Shown here: positions 25,409-44,000 of the stretch, piece by piece
Layout of the letters: each line of letters begins with the position of its first letter
Position numbering within the stretch: position 1 is the stretch's first letter
Assembly: GCA_019241635.1 (NCBI GenBank)
Contig: JAFAWR010000300.1
Location: 363-64,362 of the forward strand
DNA length: 64,000 nucleotides
Source: Solirubrobacterales bacterium
GTDB taxonomy: Bacteria > Actinomycetota > Thermoleophilia > Solirubrobacterales > Solirubrobacteraceae
Direction of reading: 5' to 3'
Translations under genes and position numbers: made by a program
The notes under the pieces: generated by a model
The model's input: the letters and a program-made list of their open reading frames with translations, nothing else
Told to the model about the DNA's origin: nothing
Database searches by the model: none

Positions 25409-28400
25409 TCAGGAGACCGAGATCGGTGGCTCGTCGGACGAGGGACCGCCGCCGGGTGCGGCCGGCGCCGGTGCGCCGGATACGGAGCGCGGCGAGAGCC
25501 CCAGCATGCCGGGGCCGCCGGCCATCGACCACTTGAACTGCGTGACGTTCTCCTTCGGAGCGAACAGCCCGGACCGCGAGCCGCGGCGTACGAACAGCAC
25601 CGGCGCCGGCGCCGCCTTGGCGATCGCCGAGCGGGTCGGGCCGAGGCCCTCCTTCCGCCACCGCTCGGAGAGGCCGAGCACCAGCAGCCCCGCCTGCTCG
25701 GCCGCGGCCACGATGCCTTCGCGACCGCCGGCGACGACCAGCGGCTCGGTGGCGATCCCGGTGGCCTGCTGCACGAGCAACCCGGCGTCAGCGAGCAGCC
25801 GCGTCACCGACTTGCCCTCGTCGGACTGGCCCGCGGCGCCGAGGAGCCTGAGCGGCGCCCCGGTGTTCGACGCCAGCCACGAGCCAAGCTCGAGCGCGGC
25901 CCAGTCGTGCTCGGCGCCGCCGAACGGAACCAGGATCGGCTTGTCGGGACCGAGCTCGATCGGATCGCCCTCCTTGGCGACCAGCACGGCCACGTCGGAC
26001 ACGGCATGTTCCATGAGCTCGCCGACCTCGCCGAGCGGGACGCCCTCACCCACCAGCCGACGTCGCCCGTCGGTGAGCACCAGATCGACCGGCTCGTGAT
26101 CGACGATGTGGGCGAGGTCCGAGCCGGGGCTCGACGAGGTGAGCGCCACGCCACGGGCTACGACACCCTCGAGGGCGAGCCGCTCGCGCAGGTCGTTGAT
26201 CGCTCGCGATGCCCGCTCGAGCGCGAGGTTCTCCGACTGCAGGCCGCCGCGCACGCCGGCGCCCGCGCCCCTGGGGGGCTGGACCAGGCGCGCGATGATC
26301 AGCTCGCGGGCCGGCTCGGACCGGGCCAGCGGCTCGGCCAGCGCCACCAGCTGCCCGATGGCGCCGTCGGTTTGCGGAGCGACCAGGATCGAGCGCTCCG
26401 GCACCGGGAGCTCCGGGTGCGCCTGGACCGCGGCGAGCGCGGCGTCGGCGAACTCGTCCTCGATGCCACGGCCGTACTCGTTGCGCGGGTCGAGCAGCTT
26501 GAGCAGCGGCCCGGCCATCAGGGTCGTCACGACCGCCATGATCACCAGCATCGCGAACAGCGTGTTCGAGATCGCGCCGACGTCCAGAGCCAGGTTGAGG
26601 ACGATCAGCTCGGTCAGCCCCCGGGTGTTCATCAGCGTCCCGATGACCGACGATTCCTTCCAGCTGTAGCCGGTAACCCGGGCGGCGATCGCGGCGCCGG
26701 CGAGCTTGCCGAGGATCGCCACCGCGATCAGCAGCAGCGTGAGCAGCCACAGCTCCGGACGGTCGAGCAGGCCGACGTTCGTCCGCAGGCCGGTGTAGAC
26801 GAAGAACACCGGCAGCAGCAGGGTGACCACGAAGTCGTCGATCCGGCGGGTGATCTCCTCGTTCAGGCGCGCGTGCCGCGGCATGATCATGCCGAACACG
26901 AAGCCGCCGAAGATGAACGCGATGTTGATCTCCTCGGTCACGTAGGCGGAGAGCAGGACGCCGATGACGATCGCGGCGAACCACGCGCCGGGCATTCGTC
27001 CCACCTCGTCGAACGCGGTCGCCATGCGCGCAACGACGCGCCGGACGATCAACACCATGACCAGCGTGTAGGCAGTCGCCTCGCCGATCGTCTTCGCCAC
27101 GTCCCCGAACGTCCCCGACGAAGCGATCGTGACCGCGAGCGCGATCAGGAACCAAGCGGTGACGTCGTCGACCGCGGCGCACGCGATGGCCAGCGAGCCG
27201 AGCGGGCGCTTGATCATGCGGCGCTCGGCCAGGATCCTGGCCAGCACCGGGAACGCCGTGATCGACATCGCCACGCCCATGAACAGCGCGAACGCGACGA
27301 ACTTCTTGTCCGGCCCGACGAGCTTGTAGAGCGGGAGCGCAACCGCGATGCCGAGCAGCATCGGCACGGCGACGCTGGTGTTCGAGATCGCCGTGGCCTG
27401 GGCGACCTTGCCCTTCAGCGAGCCTCGATCGACCTCGAGCCCGACCAGGAACATGTAGAAGATCAGGCCGAGGTTGGCCACCACCCCGAGCGCGGACAAG
27501 GTGTCGCTCGGGAAGAAGGTCGCCTGCAGGTTGGCCGAGAACGCGCCGAGCAGCGACGGGCCCAGGCAAAGGCCGGCGATCACCTCCCCCATCACGCGCG
27601 GCTGGCCGACCTTCACCGCGATGACCCCGAACACGCGGGCGACGATCAGCACGATCGCGATGGCCAGGAAGATGGCCGCGATCAGCTTGTTGGCGTCGGC
27701 GCGCTGCTTGGTCGCGGTGAACTTCTCGCCCGCGGGAGACAGACCGGAGGGGGTGGTCAGAGCCGGCTTGGCCTGCGAGGCCGTCGACGGGACCGGCGCG
27801 GCGACCTGGAGCGGGATCACCGTGACCTTCTGAAGCTGGAGGTCGTTGGCGGACGCGGTGAGGCGCGCGGTGCCGCCCTTGATGCACTTGACGTCGCCGA
27901 ACACGCCGGAGGTCTTGCTCGAGTACGCGACCGATCCGAGCAGCGCGCTGCTCGACGAGTAGAGCTGAGCGGACGACCCCGTGCCGTGGATCGAGAACGA
28001 GCTGCCGAAGCAGGTCGAGGCCGGCGACAGCGCGTAGGTGCCCTGGATATTCGGCGGCGTGCGCGGCGCGGCCGCGCCCGGAGCGGGCGGAGCGGCGCTG
28101 AAGCTGGCGGAGAATGGGGCCCCGCCGAGGGTCCCCTTGATCGCGGCTTTGGCGCCCGGGGTGGCGATCGCATCGAGCTTCTGCGACCCACCGGCCACGC
28201 AGTTCACCGTGCCGGTCAGGCGATGGCTGTTGCCGGCGAGTGCCGTCCCGCTGAGCCGTAGCTGCCCGCCGAGGGTGTTCTGGTTGTTGGTGAAGTTCAC
28301 GAACTGCCCGGACTGGAGCAGATTGAACGACGGGCCTGCCGCCGCCACCTGCGTCGGCGCCGTCGACGGCAGCGGAACCCCGCCAGCGGGCTTCGGCACC

Positions 28401-28585
28401 GGTCCGATGCACGAATCAGCCGCGGCGAGCGTGTAGCTCCCGGCGATCGACGGCTGCGCCTTCTCGTTGCCGCCCTTGTCGACAACGAAGATCACGACCG
28501 CGACCCCAATCACGGCGATGATCGCGTAGAAGGTGATCAGACGCGTGGCCAGCTTGCCACGCGGCATTTCCTTCTGTCCCGGCAT
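25409..28585 (-). CDS. CPA2-type cation/H+ antiporter with duplicated extracytoplasmic N-terminal domain and USP-like C-terminus
   Basis: GQPRVMGEVIAG..LGPS, MFLVGLE, SITAFPVLARIL, AAVDDV, GK, LMNTRGLTELIVL motifs; C-term ILVPFGG.EHD. Confidence 0.9.
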   Translation of the reverse strand: MPGQKEMPRGKLATRLITFYAIIAVIGVAVVIFVVDKGGNEKAQPSIAGSYTLAAADSCIGPVPKPAGGVPLPSTAPTQVAAAGPSFNLLQSGQFVNFTNNQNTLGGQLRLSGTALAGNSHRLTGTVNCVAGGSQKLDAIATPGAKAAIKGTLGGAPFSASFSAAPPAPGAAAPRTPPNIQGTYALSPASTCFGSSFSIHGTGSSAQLYSSSSALLGSVAYSSKTSGVFGDVKCIKGGTARLTASANDLQLQKVTVIPLQVAAPVPSTASQAKPALTTPSGLSPAGEKFTATKQRADANKLIAAIFLAIAIVLIVARVFGVIAVKVGQPRVMGEVIAGLCLGPSLLGAFSANLQATFFPSDTLSALGVVANLGLIFYMFLVGLEVDRGSLKGKVAQATAISNTSVAVPMLLGIAVALPLYKLVGPDKKFVAFALFMGVAMSITAFPVLARILAERRMIKRPLGSLAIACAAVDDVTAWFLIALAVTIASSGTFGDVAKTIGEATAYTLVMVLIVRRVVARMATAFDEVGRMPGAWFAAIVIGVLLSAYVTEEINIAFIFGGFVFGMIMPRHARLNEEITRRIDDFVVTLLLPVFFVYTGLRTNVGLLDRPELWLLTLLLIAVAILGKLAGAAIAARVTGYSWKESSVIGTLMNTRGLTELIVLNLALDVGAISNTLFAMLVIMAVVTTLMAGPLLKLLDPRNEYGRGIEDEFADAALAAVQAHPELPVPERSILVAPQTDGAIGQLVALAEPLARSEPARELIIARLVQPPRGAGAGVRGGLQSENLALERASRAINDLRERLALEGVVARGVALTSSSPGSDLAHIVDHEPVDLVLTDGRRRLVGEGVPLGEVGELMEHAVSDVAVLVAKEGDPIELGPDKPILVPFGGAEHDWAALELGSWLASNTGAPLRLLGAAGQSDEGKSVTRLLADAGLLVQQATGIATEPLVVAGGREGIVAAAEQAGLLVLGLSERWRKEGLGPTRSAIAKAAPAPVLFVRRGSRSGLFAPKENVTQFKWSMAGGPGMLGLSPRSVSGAPAPAAPGGGPSSDEPPISVS

Positions 28586-28812
28586 CTAAGCCCCCTTTAG
28601 GCTCGGCGTATGTGATGTCCCCCCGGCCGGCGCAAACCCCCGCCTCGGCCTGGTCGCGCGGAAAAGTAGCCCATTGCGGGCAACTCCGCATCCGGCACGT
28701 GCCATCGAACTGCATCCGTAAAGGACCGCAATTTTGTTCCGGAGGGCGCCGCGATCCGAGTTCGGCCGTCTCCGTGGGAGTTCGCGCTGTACCACGAGGC
28801 CTAGGTTGGTTT

Positions 28813-28916
28813 ACGCGGGGTCGTCGTCCCCTTCGCCCGTCCCTGCGTCGCCTCTCCGATCGTGGCGTCGCCGCGGGTTCCGCGAGGACGGGGCGAAGCG
28901 GATCGACGACCCGCGT
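28813..28916. repeat. Long imperfect inverted repeat
   Basis: ACGCGGGGTCGTCG..CTTCGCCCGTCC pairs with GGACGGGGCGAAG..CGACGACCCGCGT. Confidence 0.7.
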
Positions 28917-29010
28917 TGTTTGCACGTGTCGTGGTGCGCGGCTCCCACGGGGCGGATGCACGGCGCCGCGGCTTGGGAAAAGCCGGCGAGGGTCGCGAGG
29001 GTGCGGAAGT

Positions 29011-29106
29011 CGCCAAACCTCGTCCTCCGCCCGCCGTCCATGCCACATAAGCGTCTTGGAGGCGCTTATGTGGCCGAGGTTCCGGCGGGCGCGGGAGCTT
29101 TGGCGC
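29011..29106. repeat. Long imperfect inverted repeat with 15-bp core stem
   Basis: GCCACATAAGCGTCT-TGG-AGGCGCTTATGTGGC (29042-29074), extended by CGCCCGCCG/CGGCGGGCG and CGCCAAA/TTTGGCG. Confidence 0.7.
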
Positions 29107-29207
29107 GTTAGGCACCCCGCTCACTTTGCCCCGTGCGCTGACGCGCGCGGCCGGGACGGCAGACGCTCGGCGGCAGGAGATCGCTCGTGTCGCCTGTCGC
29201 CTGAGGT

Positions 29208-30365
29208 CTACAGCCCGAGCATTGAGGCGATGCGTACGCGCTGCGTCTCGTTGGTGCCCGAGTAGATCGGGGCACCGATCGCGTCGCGCAGGCCCTTCTC
29301 GAGCCCGTACTCGCGCGTGTAGCCGCGCGCGCCGAAGATCTGGATCGCCGACAGCGCCGAGGCGACGTTGGCCTCGCTGGTGATCAGCTTGGCCATCGAG
29401 ATCTCGGTGGTCACGCTGCGTCCCCGATTGAACCGCCGGGCGGTGTCGTAGAGGTGCTTGCGCGAGTTCTCCAGGCCGATCTTCATGTCGACGATCTTGC
29501 CGGCCACGTACTGGTTGGAGCCGATCGAGGCGCCGAAGGCCTGCCGGGTCTTGGCCCACTTGATGCAGCGCTCCATGCGCTCCTCCATCTCCCCGACCAT
29601 CATCATGAAGATGCACAGGATCTCGTAATTCATGACGTGCTCGAGGATGAAGAAGCCGGCCCCGGGCTTGCCGAGCATGTTCTCCTTGGGCACGCGACAG
29701 TCGCGGAACTCGAGCTCGCAGAACGGGCAGGTGTTCAGCCCGAGCTTCTCGATCGGCTCGCCCACGTGGAACCCGGACGTGTCGGTTGGGACCAGGAACG
29801 CGGTGATGCCGGCGGCCCCGCCCGCGGTGCCGGTCTTGGCGTACACGGTGATGATGTCGGCCAGCGGGCCGCTGGTGATCCAGATCTTCTTGCCGTCAAG
29901 GATGTACTCGTCGCCGTCCTCGGTGGCGGTGGTGATCATCGCCGTCGCGTCCGAGCCGGCGTTCGGCTCGGAGATCGCATGGGCACTGATGATCTCGCCG
30001 TCGATGAGCCGCGACAGATAGCGGTCCTTGAGATCGTCGGATCCGAACTTCTGGAGCGGGATCGCGGCGCTCACGACCTGCGTGGCCAGCGCGAACAGAA
30101 GCCCGGTGTCGCGGCATCCGTAGCCGAGGTTCTCGAGTACGTAGACCAGCGTGAGCACGTCGTGGCCCAGACCGCCCCATTGCTCGGCGAACGGGATCCG
30201 GATCACCCCGCTGTCACGGATCAGCTGCCACTTGTCGCGGTTGAAGCGGTTTGCCGCGTCATCCTCGAGATGACCGGCGTTGAGCGCCTCGAAGTGCTGA
30301 CTCAGTGACTTACGAAGCGATTTCTGCTCGTCGGTCCATTCGCCGGTTGGGGCGGTCAGTGCCAT
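29208..30365 (-). CDS. Carrier-protein-dependent acyl-CoA dehydrogenase-like enzyme (PltE/RedW prolyl-PCP dehydrogenase type)
   Basis: AHAISEPNAGSDA, GKKIWITSGP, IFGARGY, IYSGT (not IYEGT); operonic with A-domain and carrier protein. Confidence 0.85.
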   Translation of the reverse strand: MALTAPTGEWTDEQKSLRKSLSQHFEALNAGHLEDDAANRFNRDKWQLIRDSGVIRIPFAEQWGGLGHDVLTLVYVLENLGYGCRDTGLLFALATQVVSAAIPLQKFGSDDLKDRYLSRLIDGEIISAHAISEPNAGSDATAMITTATEDGDEYILDGKKIWITSGPLADIITVYAKTGTAGGAAGITAFLVPTDTSGFHVGEPIEKLGLNTCPFCELEFRDCRVPKENMLGKPGAGFFILEHVMNYEILCIFMMMVGEMEERMERCIKWAKTRQAFGASIGSNQYVAGKIVDMKIGLENSRKHLYDTARRFNRGRSVTTEISMAKLITSEANVASALSAIQIFGARGYTREYGLEKGLRDAIGAPIYSGTNETQRVRIASMLGL

Positions 30366-30382: not shown

Positions 30383-30781
30383 TCAGGTCCCTACGACTTC
30401 CCCGTACACGGACGGGTGGACGCCGGACTCGCTGATGCGGTGCGCTTCGTCGCCGGTCAGCGCCGGCGTGAACATGCAGACCAGGCGGAGGTCCTCGTCC
30501 TCACCTCCGAGCAGCCAGTGGGTGTCGTGCTCATCGAGCGCGTACATCCGGCCGGGGAAGATCTCGTGCTCGGTGCCGTCCATCGCGATGACCTTGCCGC
30601 GGCCCTCGATGCAGTAGCACGCCTCGAGATGGTTGGAGTACTCGATCAGCGTCTTGGTGCCCTTGCGCACGGTCGTGTCGGTGAGCGTGTAGCCCATGCC
30701 GTCGGCCTCGAGCAGGAAGCGCCGGCTCAGACCATTGCCCCATTCGACCGTCTTCACGTCCTCCAGGTCCCGAATGATCAT
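30383..30781 (-). CDS. ectC: Solitary ectoine synthase-like cupin
   Basis: MIIR, SRR.LL..DGMG, Y.NHLEACYCI.G, YALD.HD.H, C.F.P.LTG.E.H; no ectA/ectB in the window. Confidence 0.88.
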   Translation of the reverse strand: MIIRDLEDVKTVEWGNGLSRRFLLEADGMGYTLTDTTVRKGTKTLIEYSNHLEACYCIEGRGKVIAMDGTEHEIFPGRMYALDEHDTHWLLGGEDEDLRLVCMFTPALTGDEAHRISESGVHPSVYGEVVGT

Positions 30782-30802: not shown

Positions 30803-31615
30803 CTAAATGGCTGGGATCTGTCCCAGCTCTCCGAGTAGCCCCCGGAAGTCTTCGACCACGTCGCGCCCGGCCTCGCGCGCGGCGGTGACCCGCGCCACGC
30901 AGGTCGAGCCGACGATCGCGGCGTCGGCCCCCACCGCGCCCAGACCGTCGATGTGGCTCTTGTTCTTGACGCCGAAGCCGACCGCGATCGGCACTTCGGT
31001 GCGCGCCCGCAGCGTCTCCATCACCGGGACGAGCGCGCTGTGGTCCGGCGGACCCACGGTGCCGCTTCGGCCGTACGCGGCGACCAGGTAGATGTAGGCC
31101 GAGCCGTGGTCGGCCGCCTCGTGGAGCACCGGCTCCTCCGAGGTGGCGTAGCAGGTGGTGACGATCGGGAGATCGACGGTGCCCGCCGCCTCGTAGTACT
31201 CGGGCTTGAGCCGAGGTGGGAGCCCGTGCACGAGCAGCCCGTCGGCGCCCGACGCCTGTACGCGCTCAAGGAACTCCTTCATCGGCGTGCCCTTGATCGA
31301 GTAGCTCCAGTCGGCGAGCAGCGCGATCTTCAGATGGCTCAGCTCGGGGCGGACGCGACCGATGAAGGCGAGAACCGCCTCGCGATCGATGCCGTCCTGA
31401 AGTGCGCGGCTGGCCGAGGCGCGGATGACCGGCCCGTCGCTGGCCGAGTTCGGGAACGGGATGGCCAGCTCCAGGCAGTCCACGCGAGCCTCGTCAAGCA
31501 TGTGTACGAGCGAGCGGAACGTGTCCAGCGGCGGGTCGCCAGCGTTCAGGAACAGCGCCAAGCCGGGCCGCCCCGGGCGGGCGTCGGCGAAAAAGCGCGT
31601 CGCCGAGGCGGTCAT
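30803..31615 (-). CDS. trpA: Divergent tryptophan synthase alpha-like (indole-glycerol-phosphate lyase-like) protein
   Basis: AGDP, LELAIPF....SDGPVI (catalytic Glu and Asp kept), GADGLLV, VGFGV, AIVGS; no trpB. Confidence 0.88.
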   Translation of the reverse strand: MTASATRFFADARPGRPGLALFLNAGDPPLDTFRSLVHMLDEARVDCLELAIPFPNSASDGPVIRASASRALQDGIDREAVLAFIGRVRPELSHLKIALLADWSYSIKGTPMKEFLERVQASGADGLLVHGLPPRLKPEYYEAAGTVDLPIVTTCYATSEEPVLHEAADHGSAYIYLVAAYGRSGTVGPPDHSALVPVMETLRARTEVPIAVGFGVKNKSHIDGLGAVGADAAIVGSTCVARVTAAREAGRDVVEDFRGLLGELGQIPAI

Positions 31616-32661
31616 GCCACCACGGCCGCCTGCTTGCCGTGCGCCCGCATGCGGTCGATCAGCCGCGCAGGCTCGCGGGCGCTCATCGCATCGGCGGCCA
31701 TCCGGAGTCCCTCGCTCCAGTCGGAGGCGACTTCGCAGTTGATGGCCAGCGCGGCCGCGTTCAGCCTGATGCTCTCGATCGCGCCGATCGGGCCGTCCCC
31801 GCCGAGCAGGGCGAGGAAGTGATCGACGGTCTGATCGAGCTCGGGGACCGGAAGCAGGTCGTCGAACGGGCGCTCGCTCAGACCGAGCTCGCTCGGGCGT
31901 ACGAGGGACTCTTCGCCCCGGACGCTGTCGTACACGTGGCAGTCGACGACGCTCATCAGCTCATCGACCCCGACGTCGTTCCACACCACCCAGTAGTCCT
32001 TGCTCGAATCCTCGGAGACCAGCGACCTGAAGGTCGGCAACACGCTGTGATCCGACACCCCGGTGATCTGGAGTGACACCGGCACGGCGGCCAGGAACGG
32101 GCCGATCAGGTTGAAGAAGCGACCCACGGTCTTCATGTCGAAGGGCAGGATCTGCCGCGCCAGCATGCGCAGCTCCTTGGGGTAGACGAACGGGCCGGCG
32201 CAGGCCATCCCGAACGTGTCGAGCATCTCCTCGGTCTGCTCGTAGGAGCTGGTCTGCCGGATGCCGAGACGATCGAGCAGGTCGACCGAGCCGGTCCGGC
32301 TGGCGTACGCGCGCGAGCCGGTCTTGATCACGCGGGCCCCCATCGCCGCGGCCACGAACGCGGACGCGGTCGAGAGGTTGAACGTGCTCGGGCCGCCGCC
32401 GGTTCCCACGATGTTCACCGTGGTGCGGGTCGGCGGCCCGGGCTGGGGATTGCGGTCCCTTAGCGACTGCAGGAGCGTGCTGACCGAGGTGCCGTCAGGC
32501 ATGCGTGTCGTGAGCGACGACAGCACGGCCAGCGCTTCGCCCGGATGCAGGCTCTTGTCGCCCAGTCGGTCCCAGAAGTCACCCCATACCGCTTCGGAGA
32601 TCGGGTAGCGCTGAGTTACCAGCGCAGCCAGGGCTTCCGATGGCGGAGGCTTAGAGGTCAT
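31612..32661 (-). CDS. trpD: Divergent anthranilate phosphoribosyltransferase-like protein
   Basis: GTGGG..TFNLSTA.AFVAAA.G, GS.D.L..LG, FNLIGP, GVDE, NAAA; KHGN replaced by KTGS. Confidence 0.88.
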   Translation of the reverse strand: MTSKPPPSEALAALVTQRYPISEAVWGDFWDRLGDKSLHPGEALAVLSSLTTRMPDGTSVSTLLQSLRDRNPQPGPPTRTTVNIVGTGGGPSTFNLSTASAFVAAAMGARVIKTGSRAYASRTGSVDLLDRLGIRQTSSYEQTEEMLDTFGMACAGPFVYPKELRMLARQILPFDMKTVGRFFNLIGPFLAAVPVSLQITGVSDHSVLPTFRSLVSEDSSKDYWVVWNDVGVDELMSVVDCHVYDSVRGEESLVRPSELGLSERPFDDLLPVPELDQTVDHFLALLGGDGPIGAIESIRLNAAALAINCEVASDWSEGLRMAADAMSAREPARLIDRMRAHGKQAAVVA

Positions 32662-32712: not shown

Positions 32713-32976
32713 TCACTCGGCATGCGCGGTCTCCCGCGCCTGGTCGACGTAGGCCTTGATCGCCGCGACGGTCCGGAAGCTGTCGGGCCCGAGCTCGGAG
32801 TCGTCGACGCCGATGTCGAACTCGTCTTCCAGCCAGGCCACGACCTTGAGCAGCCCGAGGCTGTCCACGACGCCGCCGGTCAGCAGATCGAAGTCGTCAT
32901 CGAGATCCTCGACCGGGACGTCCGGCATGAACTCCTCGACGATGAACGCCTTGATCTTCTGAGTGGTCTCATCCAT
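32713..32976 (-). CDS. Stand-alone peptidyl/acyl carrier protein (PltL/RedO-like)
   Basis: Acidic, 87 aa, LL.GGVVDSLGLL phosphopantetheine Ser motif; GGAG RBS. Confidence 0.92.
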   Translation of the reverse strand: MDETTQKIKAFIVEEFMPDVPVEDLDDDFDLLTGGVVDSLGLLKVVAWLEDEFDIGVDDSELGPDSFRTVAAIKAYVDQARETAHAE

Positions 32977-34513
32977 TGGCACGACTCCTCTCTAGTGCGG
33001 CCGCGACTGCCTTGCGGTCGACCTTTCCGGTTGATGTTTTAGGTAGGGGCTCGGTGACGATCTCGATCATCGAAGGCATCTCGGTGCGCGCGAGACGTGT
33101 GGCGCAGTGCTGGCGCAGGATCAGGCTGTTGAGCTTGGCGTCGACCTCGCGCCGTACGTGCGCATGCAGGCGGGCGCCGGCCAGCTCGTCGGGCACTGCG
33201 ATGACCGCGACCTCGACCACCGCCGGATGCTCCTGGATGGCCTGCTCGACCACCTGGGTCGAAACCCGCACGCCCCGCACCTTGACGTAGAAGTCCGAGC
33301 GGCCCTCGAGCGTGAGCGTCCCGTCCTCGTGGCGGCGCACGATGTCGCCCGACTTGTAGTAGATGCGTCCGTCGCCGCCGTTCTCGGAGAGCGTGACGAA
33401 CTTCTCGTCGTTGAGCGACGCCTTGAGGTAGCCCCGGGTCTGGAACGGCGTCCAGACCACGAACTCGCCGGTGCCGGCGCCCTCGAGCGCGGTGCCGTCC
33501 TCCTGTTGGAGGCGGGCGATCACGCCGGGGATCGGCTGGCCGACCGGGACGTGGCTCGGCACGTTGCCATCGGCCAGTCCGACGAACTCGTGAATCAGGC
33601 TGTCGTTCGTCTCGGTGCAGCCGTAGAGGTTGTAGAAGCGGGCGTTCGGGAACAGCGTCGGGAGCTCGGCCAGCGAGCTGGCCGGGATCTTGTCCCCGGT
33701 GCTGATCACGTGCCTGACGCTCGGGAACGTTCGCCAATCCTCCCGGTGGACGTCGATCAGCAGGCGGTAGAGCATCGGCACGGCCTGGAGCACGTTGACC
33801 CGGTTGTCGTTGACGAGCTCGGCCAGGTACGCCCCCTGGGTCGCGCGGTCCTGGTCGACCATGGCGACGGTGCCGCCGTGCTTGAGCGTGGTCCAGATGT
33901 CGAGCAGGCACAGGTCGAAGTTGAGCGGCGCGTAGTTCGCCACCACGGTGCCCGCTTCGATCTCGAACTGCTCGGCCGCCCAGTCGGTGAACGCGTCGAC
34001 GCCGCTCGCGGTCAGCGGGACGATCTTGGGCAGCCCGGTGGAGCCCGACGTCGTGAGCATGAATGTCACGTCCTCGCCGCCGCCGACCGGCGGCCACTCG
34101 ATCCCTGCAGCATCGGGTGCGGCGCGCGCGTCATCGACCAGCGCGCGCAGGCTGGCCGCGCTCTCGCTGCGCGGTCCATGCGGGGAGAGAACCTGGCTGG
34201 TGCCAGCCTGAGCAAACAGCTGCGCCAACGTCTCGGGCGCGAGCTCGACCGACGGCAGCAGGAACGACCGGCCGGCGCGGAGACAGGCCAGGATCAGCCC
34301 GATCGCCTCGGGCGACTTCTTGGCCCGGATGCCGACCGGCCGGTCTTCGCGGAGCCTGGCGTCCTGTAGCTCGGCGAAGGACGAACCAGCCAGCTGCTGC
34401 AGCTCGCGATAAGAGACGGGGGCGCCGTCCCAGATGAGCGCGGGTGCGTCCGGCTGGCGCCGGACCTGCTCGGCGAAGTGGTCGGCCAGCGACCGGATCG
34501 CGGTCTGGCTCAT
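32969..34513 (-). CDS. Stand-alone amino-acid adenylation enzyme (PltF/RedM-like, altered pocket)
   Basis: TSGSTGLPK, APLNFDL, NLYGCTETN, YKSGD, GR.D..VKVRG.R, LPKTSTGKVDR; ATGA overlap with the trpC-like gene. Confidence 0.92.
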   Translation of the reverse strand: MSQTAIRSLADHFAEQVRRQPDAPALIWDGAPVSYRELQQLAGSSFAELQDARLREDRPVGIRAKKSPEAIGLILACLRAGRSFLLPSVELAPETLAQLFAQAGTSQVLSPHGPRSESAASLRALVDDARAAPDAAGIEWPPVGGGEDVTFMLTTSGSTGLPKIVPLTASGVDAFTDWAAEQFEIEAGTVVANYAPLNFDLCLLDIWTTLKHGGTVAMVDQDRATQGAYLAELVNDNRVNVLQAVPMLYRLLIDVHREDWRTFPSVRHVISTGDKIPASSLAELPTLFPNARFYNLYGCTETNDSLIHEFVGLADGNVPSHVPVGQPIPGVIARLQQEDGTALEGAGTGEFVVWTPFQTRGYLKASLNDEKFVTLSENGGDGRIYYKSGDIVRRHEDGTLTLEGRSDFYVKVRGVRVSTQVVEQAIQEHPAVVEVAVIAVPDELAGARLHAHVRREVDAKLNSLILRQHCATRLARTEMPSMIEIVTEPLPKTSTGKVDRKAVAAALERSRANG

Positions 34514-35235
34514 GACGACGCTCCCGGGGTGACCGGCGCGCGCAACTCGGCGCGGTGGCGTTCGAAGTCCTGCACCCAGCCGGCAATGCTGTTGGCCCGC
34601 AGCAGGCCGGTCCCGATCAACAGCCCCTTGAACCCGGCATCGATGAGCTCGGCGGCGATTTGCGGATCGAGGATCGCGCTGGCGCTCACCGGGCACGGGG
34701 TGCCGGCGGCGACCGTGGCCTCGAGCAGCGAGCGACTCGTGTCGATGTCGCCCGGCTCGCGCTCGCGCGTGTTGATGTCCTTGTTGTTGACCGCGATGAT
34801 GCAGTCCTCCGGGTGGATCACGGTGTCGAGCTCGGCCCGGTCCACGACCTCGACGAACGGGGTCACGCCGTGCTCGAGCGCAAGTTCGATCAGATGCTGG
34901 AAGGTCTTGGCGGGGAGGATCTTCGCGGTCAGCAGGACCGCCGACGCGCCCATCTCCCTGGCCGCCACGATCTGCTTCTCGCGCGTGATGAAGTCCTTCT
35001 TGAGCAGCGGCTTCTCGGTCAGCCCGGCCACTTCTTCGAGCATCGCGTCGCTGCCGCCGAACCATCGCCCGGTGACCACCGAGATGCAGGGCGCGCCGAC
35101 CTCCACGTACTGGCCGACGATCTCCTCGATCGTGCGCTCGCCCATCAGCTCGGCACCCTCGCCGTCGGAGCGCTTGACCTCCATGATGATCGGCAGGCGC
35201 CCGGCGAGCAGCGCGTCGATGAACGGGCTAGGCAT
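34510..35235 (-). CDS. trpC: Divergent indole-3-glycerol-phosphate synthase-like protein
   Basis: IIMEVKR, ISVVT...F.GS, LLKKDFI, GASAVLL, VEV, VNNKDI; short N-terminus; SESGI replaced by SASAI. Confidence 0.88.
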   Translation of the reverse strand: MPSPFIDALLAGRLPIIMEVKRSDGEGAELMGERTIEEIVGQYVEVGAPCISVVTGRWFGGSDAMLEEVAGLTEKPLLKKDFITREKQIVAAREMGASAVLLTAKILPAKTFQHLIELALEHGVTPFVEVVDRAELDTVIHPEDCIIAVNNKDINTREREPGDIDTSRSLLEATVAAGTPCPVSASAILDPQIAAELIDAGFKGLLIGTGLLRANSIAGWVQDFERHRAELRAPVTPGASS

Positions 35236-35965
35236 CGGGAGTGTCCCTCCAGGTGCGCGTGATCGCTCGCACCCGGTCGGGCGAGATCGCGCCGCCGCTT
35301 CCCTCGCGCGCGTTCGTGTCGACGTCGATTCCCAGGAACAGGGGGTGCGCGGCGAGCGCCGCATAGTCTGCGCGGTTGGCTTCGGAGATTCCGCCGGCGA
35401 GTAGGAACGGCCGCGACAACCGCCCGAGCAGCGGGGCCACGACGCTCGGATCGAGCGCCTGCCCGGTGCTGCCCACCCGGCCGTCCTCGGTGACCACGTC
35501 GAACAGGAAGACGTCGACGCCCGCCTTCTCATAGGAGCCGATCAGCGACGCCTCCACGCACTCCGCGCCGCGCACGTGGAGGACCTTGATCACGCGCACG
35601 TCGTCGCTAATCGCCTTGACCTTGCGAACCGTGCCGGGGGTGGGATAGCCGTGGAGCTGGATCCACTGCACGGGAGTACCGTCGAGCGTGGTTCGAAGCT
35701 CGTCCGCATCCTTGGCGAACGTCACCAGCACCGGTGTCAGCTGCCTGGCCGCGCCGTCGGCGGCAAGTGCCCGCCACCGATCGCGCTCGAGATCGTGGGG
35801 GCCGCCCGGGACACCCCACCACAGGCCCACGAAGTCGACGCGCTCGCCGGCCAGCACGCCGAGCTCGGCGGGATCGACGATCCCGCACACCTTGACGCGC
35901 GTCCCGTGGCCGGCCTCGCCCAGCTGCCGATCCTGCCCGTGGTGGCTCCCGCTTAGCAAAGCCAC
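35228..35965 (-). CDS. trpF: Divergent phosphoribosylanthranilate isomerase-like protein
   Basis: VKVCG (Cys), IQLHG, FLFD (Asp), G.TG, LAGGI..AN, GIDV; GTG start with AAGGGGG RBS. Confidence 0.85.
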   Translation of the reverse strand: MALLSGSHHGQDRQLGEAGHGTRVKVCGIVDPAELGVLAGERVDFVGLWWGVPGGPHDLERDRWRALAADGAARQLTPVLVTFAKDADELRTTLDGTPVQWIQLHGYPTPGTVRKVKAISDDVRVIKVLHVRGAECVEASLIGSYEKAGVDVFLFDVVTEDGRVGSTGQALDPSVVAPLLGRLSRPFLLAGGISEANRADYAALAAHPLFLGIDVDTNAREGSGGAISPDRVRAITRTWRDTPDA

Positions 35966-36086
35966 GTGTATGTGTCCCCCTTGATTACGGTCCGGCTTTG
36001 GCCAGCGCGAGCGCGGCCTCTGCCCCTGAAGCGCGACTTTAACGAGAACCGGTCCCCCGTGGCAACCCCTGGACCGTAAACAGGCG

Positions 36087-36160: not shown

Positions 36161-37456
36161 CTAGAACGCGCCCGCTCCCGAGATGCCGGGCGGCAGCGTC
36201 GCCGGCGTCGCCTGGATCTCGGTCAGGCTTCCGCCGGACCCAACCCGGTACACGTCGATCTGGCTATCGATCCCCAGACCGGCCGGCGGCGGGGCCGACA
36301 GCGCCGAGCTCGGGTCGATCACGTACAGGTACTTGTCGTCGTTGCTGAGCGCCATGTCGGCCGGGAAGCCGGGCGCCGTACTGGCTTGGTGGCTGAGCGT
36401 CATCTTGCCGTTGCCGGCCACCGACAGGCTGGATACCGCACCCACGCCGCCGGTCGGTGCCGTCGAGCCGAGCGTGTTGGTCACGAACGCCCGGCGGCCG
36501 TTCTTGGTCACGATCAGCCAGCAGGCTGCGCGCCCGCCCGTCTTCACGTTGCTGACGAGCGTGAGCTTGCCCGTGTTCGACACCTTGTAGGTGGCCGCGG
36601 TACCGGTGAACTGCGTGAAGTCCCCAACCTGGGGCATGGCGCCGTTCGCCGTATTCACCTGGCCGGCGTTGCTGATCAGGAAGTAGCGGCCGACCGCCGA
36701 GAACCCGAACGGGTTGTCGATCCCCGGCGTGGCGGTTGCCCGCGCCGGTCCGGCCGAGCCGTCACGCGCGATCACGAACGTGTCGATCTCGCCGTACTTG
36801 CGCGGAAGCGCTCGCTGGGTGACGGCCAGCACGTCGCCGTTGGCCGAGAACCCGATGCCCGCCGGCGCGCCGTTCTTGTCCTTCTTGCCCTTCGGCGTGA
36901 CCGCCTTGAGCTTGCGGTCAGAGCCGGCGATCGGCGTCAGCTTGCCCGTGCTCGAGAAGTGCCAGCCGTAAATGCTGTAGCTCAACCCGTTGAGCACGTA
37001 GAGCAGGTGGCCGCTCGTGGCCAGGCTGACCGGCAGCTTCCCGTGCGTCGACACGCGATCCACCTTCTTCAGGCCACTGGCCGTGGCCTCGAACGAGGTG
37101 ACCGTGTTGTCACCCGCGTTGACCACGAACAGCAACTTCCCGTCGGGCGTCAGGTCGACCGAGCCCTGGGAGTCGACGACCGGCAGACCGAACGTCGGTG
37201 TCCCCGGGGGCGTCGGCTGTCCCTTTCCGCCGGTTGCCACGTTCCCGAGCAGCGAGATCGTGCCGTTCGCGGCCCGGTTATAGACGAGCACGGTGTTGCC
37301 CGCCGGGTTGTTGGTCTGGGTATAGAACCGATGCGGTACGCCCGACTTCTTTCCGGCGCCCTGCTTGGCGGCGTCAGCCGCCCATGGTGCGAGCAACGCA
37401 ACAGCGACCAGCAACAACCCCATCAGCCGCGCGATCCTCACGGCATTCCGTCCCAT
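36161..37456 (-). CDS. Secreted lactonase-family 7-bladed beta-propeller protein
   Basis: Signal peptide; YTQTN...GN.V, LFVVNAGDNTVTSF, PFGF, AACW, D.ALS.D.KYLYV. Confidence 0.85.
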   Translation of the reverse strand: MGRNAVRIARLMGLLLVAVALLAPWAADAAKQGAGKKSGVPHRFYTQTNNPAGNTVLVYNRAANGTISLLGNVATGGKGQPTPPGTPTFGLPVVDSQGSVDLTPDGKLLFVVNAGDNTVTSFEATASGLKKVDRVSTHGKLPVSLATSGHLLYVLNGLSYSIYGWHFSSTGKLTPIAGSDRKLKAVTPKGKKDKNGAPAGIGFSANGDVLAVTQRALPRKYGEIDTFVIARDGSAGPARATATPGIDNPFGFSAVGRYFLISNAGQVNTANGAMPQVGDFTQFTGTAATYKVSNTGKLTLVSNVKTGGRAACWLIVTKNGRRAFVTNTLGSTAPTGGVGAVSSLSVAGNGKMTLSHQASTAPGFPADMALSNDDKYLYVIDPSSALSAPPPAGLGIDSQIDVYRVGSGGSLTEIQATPATLPPGISGAGAF

Positions 37457-37648: not shown

Positions 37649-39004
37649 CTAGTTGACTGCGAGCCCCGAGATCAGCTCCGGGAGCGTGGCTCCCTGCGTG
37701 ATCGGGGTGAGGCTGCCATCGCCGTTGATCGCGAACACGTCGATATGACTGGTCGCCGGCGGCGGCGGCACGTTCGGAACGCTCACGTAGAGGAACCTGC
37801 CGTCAGGGCTGACTTCCTCGTCGGTGGGGCTCCCCGGGCCGAGATCGGTCTGCCCGAGCCGCGTCAACGTGCCACCGGACCCGACCCGATAGGTGGTCAG
37901 TCCACCGGCGCCGGTGCCGATGCCGTTGGGCGGCCCCAGGCTCGGCGCCGTCGAGAGCGTGTTGGTCACGAACGCGAAGCTGCCGTCCTTGGACAGGACG
38001 AGCCAGCAGGCCCCGCGTCCCCCGCTCGTGACCTCGGTGCTGACCGGCGTCAGCGTCCCGGTGCTCGAGAGGGTGTAGGACGAGGCCGACCCGGTGAACT
38101 CAGTCGGATCCAGGATCTCCGGAATGGGCAGGCTGCCCGCCGGGTAGGCGTACGTGCCGTTCACCTGGCCGACGTTCGAGACCAGCAGCGTCCCCGAGCG
38201 CGTGAACGCGAACCCGAACGGGTTCGGGTCGACGCTGGCGGTCCGGTCGGCCTGCTCGAGGGTCAGCGACCCGTCCCGGTTCACCGCGAACGTGTCGATC
38301 GCCCCGACCGTGCTCGGCACGCCGCGCTCGGTCACCACCAGCTGGTGCCCGTCCGGGCTGAAGCCGATCTGGGCGGCGACCCCGCCGGCGTTGGGCGGCG
38401 CCGGACCGGACGGGAACAGAGGCGAGATCAGCGTCTCCGACCCCGGGATCGGCCACAGACGACCGTCGTCGGAGAAATAGAACCCTTCGACGGTGCTGCT
38501 CTGCTCGTTGACCACATAGAGCAGATGGCCGTGCGTGGTCAGGCTGATCGGCAGAACCCCACCCGAGCTGACCCGATCCGCGCGCCTCAGGTGATCGCCG
38601 TCGGCCTGGAACGAGGTGATCGTGTTGTCGCCGTCGTTGACCACGAACAGCAGGCGGCCATCGCCGGCCAGGGCCATCGATCCGGAGGAGTCGACGATCG
38701 GGAAGGTGAACGGCGGCTGCGCGGCGATGCCGGTACCGCCGGTCGGTACGGTGGGACCCTGGGTGAGCGTGCCGTCGCGGTTGCGGTGAAAGACGATCAC
38801 CGCGTTCCCGCTCGGATTGTTGGTGGTGGTGTAGAGATCGCCGCCGCGATTACCGTGGAACCAGTGGCGGACGGCGTGATGGTGCTTGCCGCCCGCCTTG
38901 GCCTGCGCCGTAGCCGGCACGGCCGCGAGCACGACGGCGGCGAGAAGTAGGAGGATCCGTCGCACGAGTCGACTCGCGCGCACGGACTGCCCCGGTCCGG
39001 TCAT
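37649..39004 (-). CDS. Secreted lactonase-family beta-propeller protein (paralog of 36161-37456)
   Basis: Signal peptide; same blade motifs (LFVVNDGDNTITSF, NPFGF, GACW, SPDGRFLYV). Confidence 0.85.
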   Translation of the reverse strand: MTGPGQSVRASRLVRRILLLLAAVVLAAVPATAQAKAGGKHHHAVRHWFHGNRGGDLYTTTNNPSGNAVIVFHRNRDGTLTQGPTVPTGGTGIAAQPPFTFPIVDSSGSMALAGDGRLLFVVNDGDNTITSFQADGDHLRRADRVSSGGVLPISLTTHGHLLYVVNEQSSTVEGFYFSDDGRLWPIPGSETLISPLFPSGPAPPNAGGVAAQIGFSPDGHQLVVTERGVPSTVGAIDTFAVNRDGSLTLEQADRTASVDPNPFGFAFTRSGTLLVSNVGQVNGTYAYPAGSLPIPEILDPTEFTGSASSYTLSSTGTLTPVSTEVTSGGRGACWLVLSKDGSFAFVTNTLSTAPSLGPPNGIGTGAGGLTTYRVGSGGTLTRLGQTDLGPGSPTDEEVSPDGRFLYVSVPNVPPPPATSHIDVFAINGDGSLTPITQGATLPELISGLAVN

Positions 39005-39123
39005 GAAACAACCCCCAATGAATTGGTGCCCGCTCGGGCGCAGCAGCGCTGCGTCCTCGCATAGTCGTCCGCGACTCTAGTCCTGAGCCGCGCGCGGAGA
39101 AAGAAAATTTTGTGAACGAATGC

Positions 39124-40899
39124 TCAGACCAGGCTGGCCTCGCGGCGCGCGGCCACGAGGTCGACCGGCCGGCTGAGCGCCTTGAGCGCCGGCAGTTGCT
39201 CATTCGCGGCGATCCGGCCGGCCTGCAGGAACCGATCGGCGAGATGGAAGTCGCGCCATTCGGCCGGCCCGAAGCGGGGAGTGATCACGACGTCGCCGAG
39301 CGCGGCGTGACGAGCGCTGGTGTCGAGCTGGCTCAGGTCCATCGCCTCGAGGATGGTGTCAAGCGGCCCGCGGCGCCGCGGCTTGGCCGGCTCGGCCTCG
39401 GGCTCGTCGGGCACGCCGGGCCAGCGTTCGAGCGTTTCGGTCCCGAGCAGGTTGACCGACACCACGATGTCGGCGCCGTCCTCGATCACCGCTGCGGTGG
39501 GGACCGGGACGAGCGCGATCGCGTCGATCAGCCGGTGACCGTCGCGCTCCTGGGTGGGAAACACCCCCGCCACCGACAGCGCGGCGAGCAGCGCCTCCCA
39601 GATCGGCCCGCGGCGCTGGGCCACGGGCGCGCGCGCGGTCAGATCGACGGCCATGATCACCAGCGGGACCTGCGTGTGCGAGAAGAACGCGCCCTTGGTC
39701 GCCTCCTTGAGCAGGCCGGTGAGCGTCTCCAGCCCGGCCGAGCCGACCAGCGGCGACTTGAACAGCTGGGCGGTGTTCTCGGCGCTGAACGCTTCGCGGA
39801 AGCGGGCGTCGATCTCGCCGGCGCCATGGCCCAGGGCAAGCTGGCTGGCCACGAAACCGCCGATGCTCGAGCCGCCGACGTAGTCCACGGTGTAGCCCGC
39901 TGCCTCGAGCGCATGCAGGACGCCGACGTGGGCGTAGCCCTTGGCGCCGCCGGCGCCCAGGGCCAGCCCGAGCTTGGTTCGGGTGAGGTGGCGGGCGATC
40001 CATGCCACGTCGGCGTCGGCCAGCGCGAAGTCCGGCTGGCGCGCGCACTCACGCACGACCAGCCTGAGCGCGCTCGGGTGCCACATCTGGCTGGCCTGGC
40101 GCGCCTCGTCGGAGACCAGGATGATCTCGAGTCGCCGGCCCTTCGACGCGGCGGCCACGTTCCCCAGCCGGTTGGCCTCCTCGGCGTTGCCGACCAGGGC
40201 GACGACCCGATCGGCCTCGTCGAGCAGCACGGCGACCGTGTCGGGATCGAACTCCGAGGGGATGAGCACGGTGGCGTTCTCGGTGGCCAGCTCATCGGAC
40301 GCGGTGAGCGCGCCGGCGAACGACAGCGAGCGGTCGGCCACGGTGACCGGCTGGGCGCTGGCCATGCGCGCGGCGGCGATGAGCCCCGGGATCACTCCCT
40401 TCAGCGACGGCCCGGCGATCAACCCGATCTCCTCGCCCCGGTTGGAGCTCGAGCGGACACTCGCGCTGAACAGGGCGGCGCTGCGCGCGCTGGCCCGGAA
40501 CAGGCGCTCGCGCTGGGTATGGATCACGTTGATGAGGATGCGAGGGAAGCGCCCGGCCAGCGTGAGCAGGTCGGCGGCGTCGAGCTCGAGCGTGTCGGTG
40601 ATCGTGCTCGCCGACACCGTGGCGGTGCGCTCGGTGCCGGTGATCGCGTCCTGGGCGCCGATCACGTCGCCCTTGCGCATGCGCAACTCGATCTCCCCGC
40701 CGCCGGCCGTGGTGCCGGCGCTCCAGATGACCAGCCCGCCGGTGATCAGCCAGATGCGATCGCTCGGATCCCCCGCCGCGCACAGCTGCTCGCCGGGCGC
40801 GAACTGGCGCGGACGCATGTGCCCGGCGACCGTGTCCAGCTCAGCGTCGCTGAGCCCTTCGAACAGGCGGATCCCGGCGAGGTTCGTGTCACGGGCCAT
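39124..40899 (-). CDS. cNMP-binding domain + patatin-like Ser hydrolase
   Basis: N-term cNMP fold (GDPSDRIW.I..G...GDVIG...RTATV); GAGGAKG, GSSIG (GxSxG), LIDAI (DGG-like Asp). Confidence 0.88.
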   Translation of the reverse strand: MARDTNLAGIRLFEGLSDAELDTVAGHMRPRQFAPGEQLCAAGDPSDRIWLITGGLVIWSAGTTAGGGEIELRMRKGDVIGAQDAITGTERTATVSASTITDTLELDAADLLTLAGRFPRILINVIHTQRERLFRASARSAALFSASVRSSSNRGEEIGLIAGPSLKGVIPGLIAAARMASAQPVTVADRSLSFAGALTASDELATENATVLIPSEFDPDTVAVLLDEADRVVALVGNAEEANRLGNVAAASKGRRLEIILVSDEARQASQMWHPSALRLVVRECARQPDFALADADVAWIARHLTRTKLGLALGAGGAKGYAHVGVLHALEAAGYTVDYVGGSSIGGFVASQLALGHGAGEIDARFREAFSAENTAQLFKSPLVGSAGLETLTGLLKEATKGAFFSHTQVPLVIMAVDLTARAPVAQRRGPIWEALLAALSVAGVFPTQERDGHRLIDAIALVPVPTAAVIEDGADIVVSVNLLGTETLERWPGVPDEPEAEPAKPRRRGPLDTILEAMDLSQLDTSARHAALGDVVITPRFGPAEWRDFHLADRFLQAGRIAANEQLPALKALSRPVDLVAARREASLV

Positions 40900-40995
40900 G
40901 GTCGCCTGCCAGCGTATGGGGCGCGCGGCGGCCTCGTCAAGGCGCGGGAAAAGGTCACAGGGGCCGCTCGGGCCGTGTATAGACTCACGCCCGAA

Positions 40996-43951: not shown

Positions 43952-44000
43952 CAGTCACTCCTGAAAGCAACGAACTTCCGCGATGGACAAAGGAGACAAC

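Follow-up and report, generated by a model that had tools for sequence, protein, structure and literature searches.

Workers on ectoine have pointed to 'solitary' ectoine synthase (EctC) proteins as an unsolved question (PMC5924519). Here we describe such a protein, EctC', encoded at 30383 to 30781 on the minus strand of a 64,000-nucleotide stretch of DNA from an uncultured Solirubrobacterales bacterium (the whole stretch is hereafter termed the window). Its gene comes seventh in a tight row of eight genes on the minus strand, some of which overlap. In order, these encode relatives of phosphoribosylanthranilate isomerase (PRAI') and indole-3-glycerol-phosphate synthase (IGPS'), an adenylation (A) enzyme, a peptidyl carrier protein (PCP), a relative of anthranilate phosphoribosyltransferase (TrpD'), a TrpA-like lyase (TrpA'), EctC' and an enzyme of the acyl-CoA dehydrogenase family (ACAD). 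EctC' is not in itself a new kind of enzyme; it is an iron cupin of the EctC family, most likely taken from ectoine synthesis into secondary metabolism. We propose that it probably cyclises L-glutamine to 5-amino-3,4-dihydro-2H-pyrrole-2-carboxylate (hereafter ADPC), thereby starting a carrier-protein route to a pyrrolopyrrole, a building block of two fused rings; such a route is known in broad terms from the antibiotics kosinostatin and showdomycin.

The closest described gene set belongs to the cluster for kosinostatin (quinocycline B), which is hosted by Micromonospora sp. TP-A0468 and Streptomyces albidoflavus FXJ6.189, and the cassette concerned is that of the pyrrolo[2,3-b]pyrrole unit of kosinostatin. 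The ksn genes run in the order ksnB1 (AMP ligase, 507 aa), ksnB2 (acyl carrier protein, 87), ksnC1 (anthranilate phosphoribosyltransferase, 345), ksnC2 (TrpA, 249), ksnB3 (annotated as 'L-ectoine synthase', 124), ksnB4 (acyl-CoA dehydrogenase, 379), ksnB6 (transglutaminase-like), ksnC3 (PRAI) and ksnC4 (IGPS) (PMC13099267 Table S3). The kstC genes have been assigned to the conversion of a pyrrole and phosphoribosyl pyrophosphate (PRPP) to the pyrrolopyrrole, and deletion of ksnC3 abolishes kosinostatin (PMC13099267). For showdomycin, a review describes the cyclase SdmE as turning L-glutamine into 2-amino-1-pyrroline-5-carboxylate, a synonym of ADPC, before activation by SdmC; after loading onto the PCP SdmD, oxidation and hydrolysis give an aminopyrrole carboxylate, 2-aminopyrrole-5-carboxylate (PMC8724604). 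In vitro, the EctC homologue Athv28 forms ADPC from glutamine, and anthelvencin depends on it (PMC8627960), while the EctC of H. elongata makes ADPC from glutamine as a reversible side reaction whose equilibrium favours glutamine (PMC5924519). Regions of the antiSMASH 'ectoine' type have been reported as showdomycin-like and kosinostatin-like.

In both content and order, the core A-PCP-TrpD'-TrpA'-EctC'-ACAD of the window corresponds to ksnB1-B2-C1-C2-B3-B4, with gene sizes within a few residues. The two loci differ in that PRAI and IGPS (C3-C4) follow the ACAD gene in kosinostatin, whereas PRAI' and IGPS' precede the A gene in the window. Furthermore, the window has no type II polyketide synthase (PKS), sugar genes, transglutaminase-like KstB6 or serine hydrolase KstB5, but has PltA-like halogenases and a PRPP synthetase nearby and comes from an uncultured Solirubrobacterales host. 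The showdomycin pathway of Streptomyces showdoensis follows the same logic of cyclase, A enzyme, PCP and oxidation, and short modules of this type possess both the clade signature and the A-domain code of the window (see below). They lack the four Trp-like genes, contain a transglutaminase-like gene and have Cys or Ala at EctC' position 34 and Ser at position 102. The showdomycin product is passed to a C-glycosynthase rather than to ring annulation, and the support for SdmE as an EctC homologue is indirect. Athv28 resembles EctC' in being an EctC homologue outside an ect operon, and its supply of ADPC for a natural product was demonstrated in vitro and by deletion. However, its ADPC is used as such by the pyrrolamide nonribosomal peptide synthetase (NRPS) and is not oxidised on a carrier. 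In addition, Athv28 is reported to resemble ect-cluster EctC closely and to keep its substrate sites, while the EctC' clade has a shifted Trp and several replacements. No condensation-domain or other pyrrolamide genes were found among the annotated genes of the window or the families conserved in related loci, and EctC' is not part of a pyrrolamide NRPS cluster of the Athv28 type. A preliminary description of the locus, made from the sequence alone, had correctly pointed to an EctC homologue that supplies ADPC in the anthelvencin cluster (Athv28; PMC8627960); KstB3/KsnB3, with the same gene order, and the showdomycin module are the closer precedents.

The EctC' reading frame opens with ATG, has a G+C content at third codon positions (GC3) of 0.92 and encodes 132 residues. 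A Shine-Dalgarno-like box, GAAGGGG, lies 6 nt 5' of the start. The gap between the TrpA' stop and the EctC' start is 21 nt and that between the end of EctC' and the ACAD start is 17 nt, so that the gene has the two neighbours given in the preliminary description; EctC' is embedded, and apparently translationally coupled, within a secondary-metabolite operon. The protein matches the Pfam family Ectoine_synth (PF06339) with E=1.8e-36 and 125.7 bits, against a curated cut-off of 27 bits, and is the only PF06339 match in the genome. Its score of 137.5 bits with NCBIfam NF009806 is barely over the cut-off of 128, compared with 190 bits for one ectB-linked EctC; with the family model, EctC' scores 125 bits and canonical EctCs score 160 to 203 bits. 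The closest match in the Protein Data Bank (PDB) is the Paenibacillus lautus EctC 5ONN (E=4e-31). An AlphaFold2 model of EctC' (pLDDT 87.3, pTM 0.81) forms a cupin beta-barrel for which the top Foldseek matches were 5ONM, 5ONN, 5ONO and 5BXX (TM 0.77-0.81), with an rmsd to 5ONO of 1.3 Å over 114 columns. Canonical EctC (P. lautus 5ONM/5ONN/5ONO and Sphingopyxis alaskensis 5BXX) has the same cupin fold (TM 0.78-0.81) and the same iron ligands, at 43 to 46% identity, and differs from EctC' in its ectAB(D) context. The ratio dN/dS against close orthologues was 0.05 to 0.11, indicating purifying selection on EctC'.

Residue roles were taken from Czech et al. 2019 (PMC6344544) and transferred by alignment to the P. 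lautus enzyme 5ONN. The iron triad of EctC', E53/Y80/H88, aligns to the known ligands and was invariant in all 130 sequences of the signature alignment, which comprised 102 carrier-linked EctC-like proteins and 28 canonical ones. The motifs H51-L-E53-A, Y80-A-L and H85-D-T-H88 bear out the intact metal-binding pattern (HLEA, YAL, HD.H) read in the preliminary description. That description had also noted GLSRR in place of the canonical W-x-S-x-R and YTLT in place of FSFH, and both are present, as G17-L-S-R-R21 and Y31-T-L-T34. The first observation can be refined, as the Trp is displaced rather than lost: Gly17 occupies the canonical Trp-21 site, and W14, three residues N-terminal, is invariant in the clade. 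Thr34 occupies the canonical Asn-38 site, resulting in YTLT instead of FS[FL][HN]. Other replacements in EctC' are Glu47 for Trp-51, Cys55 for Val-59 and Ala for Pro-109. The retained contacts are S19, R21, T36, Y48, C102 and F104 (canonical Ser-23, Arg-25, Thr-40, Tyr-52, Cys-104 and Phe-106), among which the carboxylate/amine contacts S19, R21, T36, Y48 and F104 are invariant in the clade.

Comparison of the two groups of sequences revealed a clear signature. The carrier-linked EctC-like proteins all possess W-G-[NS]-G-x-S-x-R and Glu or Gln at position 47 (102/102), and all but one have Cys at position 55 (101/102). Position 34 is Thr in Trp-like cassettes and Cys or Ala in short modules, but never His or Asn, and position 102 is Ser instead of Cys in the EctC' of the short, showdomycin-type modules. 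Canonical sequences have Trp (or Phe) at the Gly17 column, mostly Trp or His at 47 and mostly Val at 55; at position 34, 27 of the 28 canonical actinobacterial sequences have His or Asn, with His in most actinobacterial EctCs. The canonical Trp-21 and Asn/His-38 are replaced by Gly and Thr, respectively, in all 82 relatives from Trp-like cassettes. Trp-21 is reportedly present in every one of 437 ect-cluster EctCs, and Czech et al. described a shifted Trp in some orphan EctCs (PMC6344544). An explicit signature dividing these cyclases from ectoine synthases appears to be new. Solitary EctC-like proteins cause genome-mining software to mislabel unrelated clusters as 'ectoine', and WG[NS]GxSxR together with E/Q47, Cys55 (with one exception) and the absence of Asn or His at 34 provides a simple, testable separator of carrier-pathway cyclases from ectB-linked synthases across the 130 sequences.

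No EctA (TIGR02406) or EctB (TIGR02407) match above cut-off was found across the genome, which is 75% complete, and tblastn detected no ectB-like gene in the window; none was present in the 80 related cassette loci described below. The absence of ectAB noted in the preliminary description therefore extends from the window to the available genome. In canonical loci, by comparison, ectB adjoins EctC immediately upstream in 26 of 29 cases (for one, a TIGR02407 score of 667 bits gave confirmation). A tree built from 116 distinct sequences, inferred by a quick IQ-TREE search of 130 columns and supported by the Shimodaira-Hasegawa-like approximate likelihood ratio test (SH-aLRT) only, with no bootstrap, separated 88 carrier-linked from 28 canonical sequences by a branch of 1.4 substitutions per site (SH-aLRT 99). 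EctC' falls outside the ectB-linked clade, which answers the phylogenetic check against canonical EctCs proposed in the preliminary description, and the Thermoleophilia EctC' sequences form one group (support 88). Three unpublished genomes (G179, G273 and G535) enter the tallies only as single rows and support no conclusion; the canonical tree sequence L124 comes from G179. True ectB-linked EctCs are only 39 to 47% identical to EctC'. The idea that Streptomyces relatives at approximately 70% identity might be ordinary ectABCD enzymes was ruled out, as these sit in the same cassette as EctC'. Two EctC'-type genes of Streptomyces (G785:C74:112217-112618 and G548:C1:1370564-1370947) each contain one in-frame TGA and are maybe decaying copies. 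Taken with the operon context and the active-site signature, the tree supports the view of the preliminary description that the protein serves precursor supply and not osmoprotection.

A scan for related loci, using one genome per species, yielded 80 loci in which EctC' was 67 to 97% identical. Homologues of ACAD and TrpD' flank EctC' in all 80, and the PCP (78/80), TrpA' (77/80), IGPS' (75/80), A (70/80) and PRAI' (70/80) genes are nearly as constant, missing genes being mostly attributable to contig ends or the coverage filter. The gene order of the window was found in 44 loci, from metagenome-assembled genomes of Solirubrobacterales, Thermoleophilaceae, Gaiellaceae and similar groups; the remaining 36 are from Streptomyces, Kitasatospora, Dactylosporangium, Streptosporangium and Actinoplanes. 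Between the Thermoleophilia and the Streptomyces/actinomycete groups, EctC' is the best conserved protein (67-73% identity), compared with 38 to 60% for the other cassette genes. A class-wide check of 300 other sampled genomes, including five of the same genus, found no EctC'-like protein at E<=1e-30; the distribution of the cassette is sporadic and fits an accessory trait. In 401 sampled Streptomyces genomes, a homologue of at least 59% identity was present in 36 and one of 48 to 58% in 25, and nearly all held an ectoine-type gene 39 to 47% identical to EctC'. The pyrrolopyrrole cassette is thus far more widespread than the rare kosinostatin cluster and occurs in at least four genomic contexts; this breadth, common in the Streptomyces samples and extending to dozens of uncultured Solirubrobacterales, appears to be new.

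One of these contexts is the short module, in which A-(PCP)-EctC'-ACAD has a transglutaminase-like gene behind it and Trp-like genes are absent; it accounts for 19 of 20 Streptomyces loci of the 48 to 58% tier. In an extended form, comprising most of the 36 actinomycete loci, genes for a class I/II aminotransferase of the 8-amino-7-oxononanoate synthase (AONS) type and a FabF-like ketosynthase (KS) lie directly upstream of the cassette. Between genera, these two proteins are 74 to 81% and 65 to 77% identical, respectively, and by analogy the extended form would represent the assembly logic of the prodiginine bipyrrole (4-methoxy-2,2'-bipyrrole-5-carbaldehyde, MBC) applied to a pyrrolopyrrole starter. 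A third form, found at five loci, has the kosinostatin order with the transglutaminase-like gene between ACAD and PRAI'; one of the five has a KS and a beta-lactamase-fold hydrolase nearby, and EctC' proteins from loci with the kst order are 58 to 66% identical to that of the window. The window itself represents the Thermoleophilia form, which lacks transglutaminase-like, KS, aminotransferase and beta-lactamase-fold genes; tblastn queries with such proteins from the other cassette types had no match in either the window or the Thermoleophilia loci. Short modules, which have to set their product free, and the kosinostatin order both have transglutaminase-like genes; the form of the window and the KS-linked form have none. 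This distribution hints that in the window's form the intermediate stays on the carrier.

Several observations bear on individual members of these groups. The extended form spans Streptomyces, Kitasatospora, Dactylosporangium and Streptosporangium (loci L039-L080, L146, L147, L152 and L158; e.g. L045:2874-5429). Two Streptomyces loci, L148 and L153, have the kosinostatin order including the transglutaminase-like gene, with an SNF2 helicase and NmrA-type reductases adjoining; as neither has a PKS nearby, the nine-gene form is not confined to kosinostatin clusters. Kitasatospora sp. NBC_01300 carries the cassette twice in inverted orientation on its 7.76-Mb chromosome (L059 and L080; 164-185 kb and 7.57-7.59 Mb), and genomes G768 and G626 likewise carry it twice, inverted near both chromosome ends. 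These doubled cassettes apparently lie inside terminal inverted repeats.

The nature of the substrate was approached through the stand-alone A enzyme (32969-34513, minus strand; 514 aa; KstB1/SdmC-type; PF00501/PF13193), which matches the amino-acid adenylation model TIGR01733. The ten pocket residues, read from motif anchors rather than from a structure, are D-L-L-Q-I-T-L-D-S-K. The code D-L-L-Q-x-T-[IVL]-D-S-K, in which two aliphatic positions vary, was found in 87 of 89 A domains from the short modules and both cassette types. This common code suggests that the A enzymes of the three architectures load the same substrate. Asp235 is retained in the pocket, and an Asp at the first pocket position is a hallmark of amino-acid activation. 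By comparison, PLPAQGVVNK has been quoted as the pocket code of a nicotinate-accepting aryl-acid enzyme.

The remaining partners of EctC' are all encoded on the minus strand. The ACAD (29208-30365; KstB4-type) has the Pfam Acyl-CoA_dh N, M and C domains and is PigA/RedW-like, scoring 366 bits with the NCBIfam model for PigA and 327 bits with that for RedW, both under the equivalog cut-offs. From its sequence, it appears most like the prolyl-PCP dehydrogenases PigA and RedW and is the proposed oxidant of ADPC-S-PCP to 2-aminopyrrole-5-carboxyl-S-PCP. TrpA' (30803-31615; KstC2-type; PF00290, E=3.3e-41) has no TrpB partner in the operon and scores 137 bits, compared with 210 to 220 bits for two stronger trpA matches on contigs C201 and C160. 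Likewise, TrpD' (31612-32661; KstC1-type; PF00591, E=1.7e-34) scores 146 bits with TIGR01245 (cut-off 199), compared with 383 bits for the housekeeping copy on C201. TrpA' and TrpD' are divergent paralogues, the far stronger trpD and trpA together on a separate contig, C201, being presumably the housekeeping genes. The carrier protein (32713-32976; 87 aa; KstB2-type; PF00550, E=4.4e-7) was given its start at an ATG with a GAGAGGAG box. IGPS', or TrpC' (34510-35235; KstC4-type; PF00218, E=3.1e-37), scores under the cut-off of every NCBIfam TrpC model. PRAI', or TrpF' (35228-35965; KstC3-type; PF00697, E=9.5e-10), is the first gene of the operon and has a promoter-like site at 36065 to 36036 on the minus strand, approximately 70 nt 5'.

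Starting from what was observed of EctC' (its family, fold, conserved residues and separate clade), of its operon and conserved cassette, and of the common A-domain pocket, we infer the following route, its substrate, product, step order and every chemical step included. EctC', the proposed L-glutamine cyclodehydratase of KstB3/KsnB3 type, would bind free L-glutamine, whose side-chain amide would be polarised by the iron centre E53/Y80/H88. Attack of the alpha-amine on the amide and loss of water would yield ADPC, a cyclic amidine, which the A enzyme would load onto the 87-aa carrier protein. A single two-electron oxidation by the ACAD would aromatise ADPC-S-PCP to 2-aminopyrrole-5-carboxyl-S-PCP. 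TrpD', PRAI', IGPS' and TrpA' could then add another pyrrole ring at the exocyclic amine, whether on or off the carrier. Their steps, which echo the formation of indole, would be phosphoribosyl transfer from PRPP, an Amadori rearrangement, a ring closure and the release of glyceraldehyde-3-phosphate in a retro-aldol reaction. This would end in a pyrrolo[2,3-b]pyrrole carboxylate, which the PltA-like halogenases may then halogenate. The unfavourable cyclisation would be drawn forward by loading at the expense of ATP and by the irreversible oxidation step, a plausible reason why the EctC' gene is always kept between the loading genes and the dehydrogenase.

The same gene position would also suit a cyclisation on the carrier, with L-glutamine as the substrate that the A enzyme activates and with ADPC-S-PCP formed when EctC' dehydrates glutaminyl-S-PCP. 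In its favour, EctC' invariably has its place between the genes for the carrier and its loading and that for the carrier-dependent dehydrogenase, and the cyclisation of free glutamine is thermodynamically unfavourable (PMC5924519). However, the clade has invariant S19 and R21, the residues by which EctC binds the free alpha-carboxylate, and known EctC-type ADPC formation uses free glutamine (PMC8627960, PMC5924519). The showdomycin review, too, puts the cyclase before the A enzyme (PMC8724604), and a cyclic amidine would probably fit no less well than glutamine into the rebuilt, conserved A pocket, in which Asp and Ser occupy positions 8 and 9. We therefore regard the on-carrier order as unlikely. 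Far less probable still is that EctC' is a working osmoprotective ectoine synthase supplied with N-gamma-acetyl-diaminobutyrate from elsewhere, in the manner of the solitary EctC discussed for Pseudomonas syringae. Its family match exceeds the curated cut-offs, its iron triad and several substrate contacts are intact, and a solitary EctC was reported to complement an ectC mutant (PMC5924519). Against this stand the lack of ectA and ectB in the genome so far as it is complete, the apparent translational coupling within a secondary-metabolite operon, the replacement of Trp-21 and Asn/His-38 throughout the relatives from Trp-like cassettes, the position of EctC' outside the ectB-linked clade and the absence of the gene from the 300 other genomes of the class, congeneric ones included.

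A nicotinic acid origin would assign EctC' a different task, as an amidine hydrolase or cyclase that opens or closes a ring on a nicotinate-derived, carrier-bound intermediate. As related by papers that cite the study, Ma et al. published nicotinic acid and ribose as the precursors of the kosinostatin pyrrolopyrrole, and EctC enzymes are known also to hydrolyse cyclic amidines (PMC5924519). The A pocket, in contrast, with its Asp235, fits amino-acid models (TIGR01733) and not the quoted nicotinate-accepting aryl-acid code, and the same code occurs in the showdomycin-type short modules, for which the stated precursor is glutamine. On balance, we find a nicotinate-derived substrate improbable. 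If our reading of the pocket is true, the pyrrolopyrrole of kosinostatin would start from glutamine and not from nicotinic acid, and the common A-domain pocket makes this choice of origin directly testable. Cyclisation of free L-glutamine by EctC' must itself be weighed against several points. Should the nicotinic acid origin cited for Ma et al. be right, the KstB3-type enzyme has another role. The orthology of EctC' to KstB3 and SdmE rests on gene order, annotation and reviews and not on the sequences of those proteins. For the five short modules checked for a C-glycosynthase (PF04227), only distant housekeeping copies were detected; as no C-glycosynthase gene adjoins them, these modules are not showdomycin clusters proper. 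Finally, the window contains no thioesterase, condensation, transglutaminase-like or beta-lactamase-fold hydrolase gene that would account for product release.

The genes beyond the operon include candidates for later steps. On the opposite strand, 5 to 10 kb from the operon, lie a ribose-phosphate pyrophosphokinase (PRPP synthetase) gene and two genes for flavin-dependent halogenase-like proteins. The PRPP synthetase (40996-42015, plus strand, start approximate) is recognised by its Pribosyltran_N and Pribosyl_synth domains, which lie within the C-terminal third of the reading frame 39112-42015, and is a likely supplier of the co-substrate of TrpD'. Halogenase-like protein 1 (42191-43951, plus strand) has PltA (5DBJ) as its closest PDB match (E=9e-18) and possesses WLWLIQ in place of WxWxIP, along with GGGLAG and FKVGES motifs. 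Halogenase-like protein 2 (43983-45734, plus strand), 47% identical to the first, has the motif WVWMIP and matches 5DBJ (E=1.6e-23), followed, among other flavin halogenases, by 5BVA/5BUL and 5BUK, which we take to be Bmp2 and Mpy16, halogenases of carrier-tethered pyrroles. In several of the related loci (e.g. L002, L014, L016 and L032), a halogenase homologue stands immediately beside the cassette. Within the 10-kb flanks of the 44 Thermoleophilia-type loci, halogenase-like genes were found at 14 to 18 (some abutting PRAI') and a PRPP synthetase gene at 13, together with lactonase-type beta-propellers at 28, patatin-cyclic nucleotide-binding (cNMP) proteins at 24 to 27 and Na+/H+ exchangers at 23 to 26. 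No gene family conserved around the Thermoleophilia cassettes was found to be lacking from the window.

What appears new about the Thermoleophilia loci is a setting that has PltA-like halogenases but lacks a PKS. Since the Thermoleophilia cassette lacks a PKS, the KS/aminotransferase pair and a thioester-releasing enzyme, and repeatedly lies beside two halogenases and a PRPP synthetase, a halogenated end product is possible. We suggest, tentatively and with some doubt, that it makes a free, halogenated pyrrolo[2,3-b]pyrrole carboxylate as its end product, the Trp-like enzymes acting on a carrier-tethered arylamine. To our knowledge, neither such a pyrrolopyrrole scaffold nor Trp-like enzymology on a carrier-bound arylamine has been described outside kosinostatin.

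Downstream of the ACAD gene there is a stretch of approximately 620 nt of low coding potential (28586-29207), with a weak terminator-like hairpin at 28681 to 28669 on the minus strand. A reading frame of 210 aa that extends into it (28416-29048) was considered as the missing release enzyme, but is probably non-coding (GC3 0.59, no Pfam match); it was dropped as it showed no similarity to transglutaminase-like or beta-lactamase-fold proteins. Two paralogous seven-bladed beta-propellers of the lactonase type are encoded between the operon and the PRPP synthetase (36161-37456 and 37649-39004, limits of the reading frames), as is a protein with a patatin and a cyclic-nucleotide-binding domain (reading frame 39124-41313, its true start probably later, near 40899). 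The beta-propellers and the patatin protein are the only release or tailoring candidates seen. Downstream, on the operon strand, lies a gene for a fusion of a Na+/H+-exchanger-family protein with a universal stress protein (25409-28585), which has an N-terminal extension of approximately 314 aa. The adjacency of this exchanger could reflect plain synteny or a role in export or resistance.

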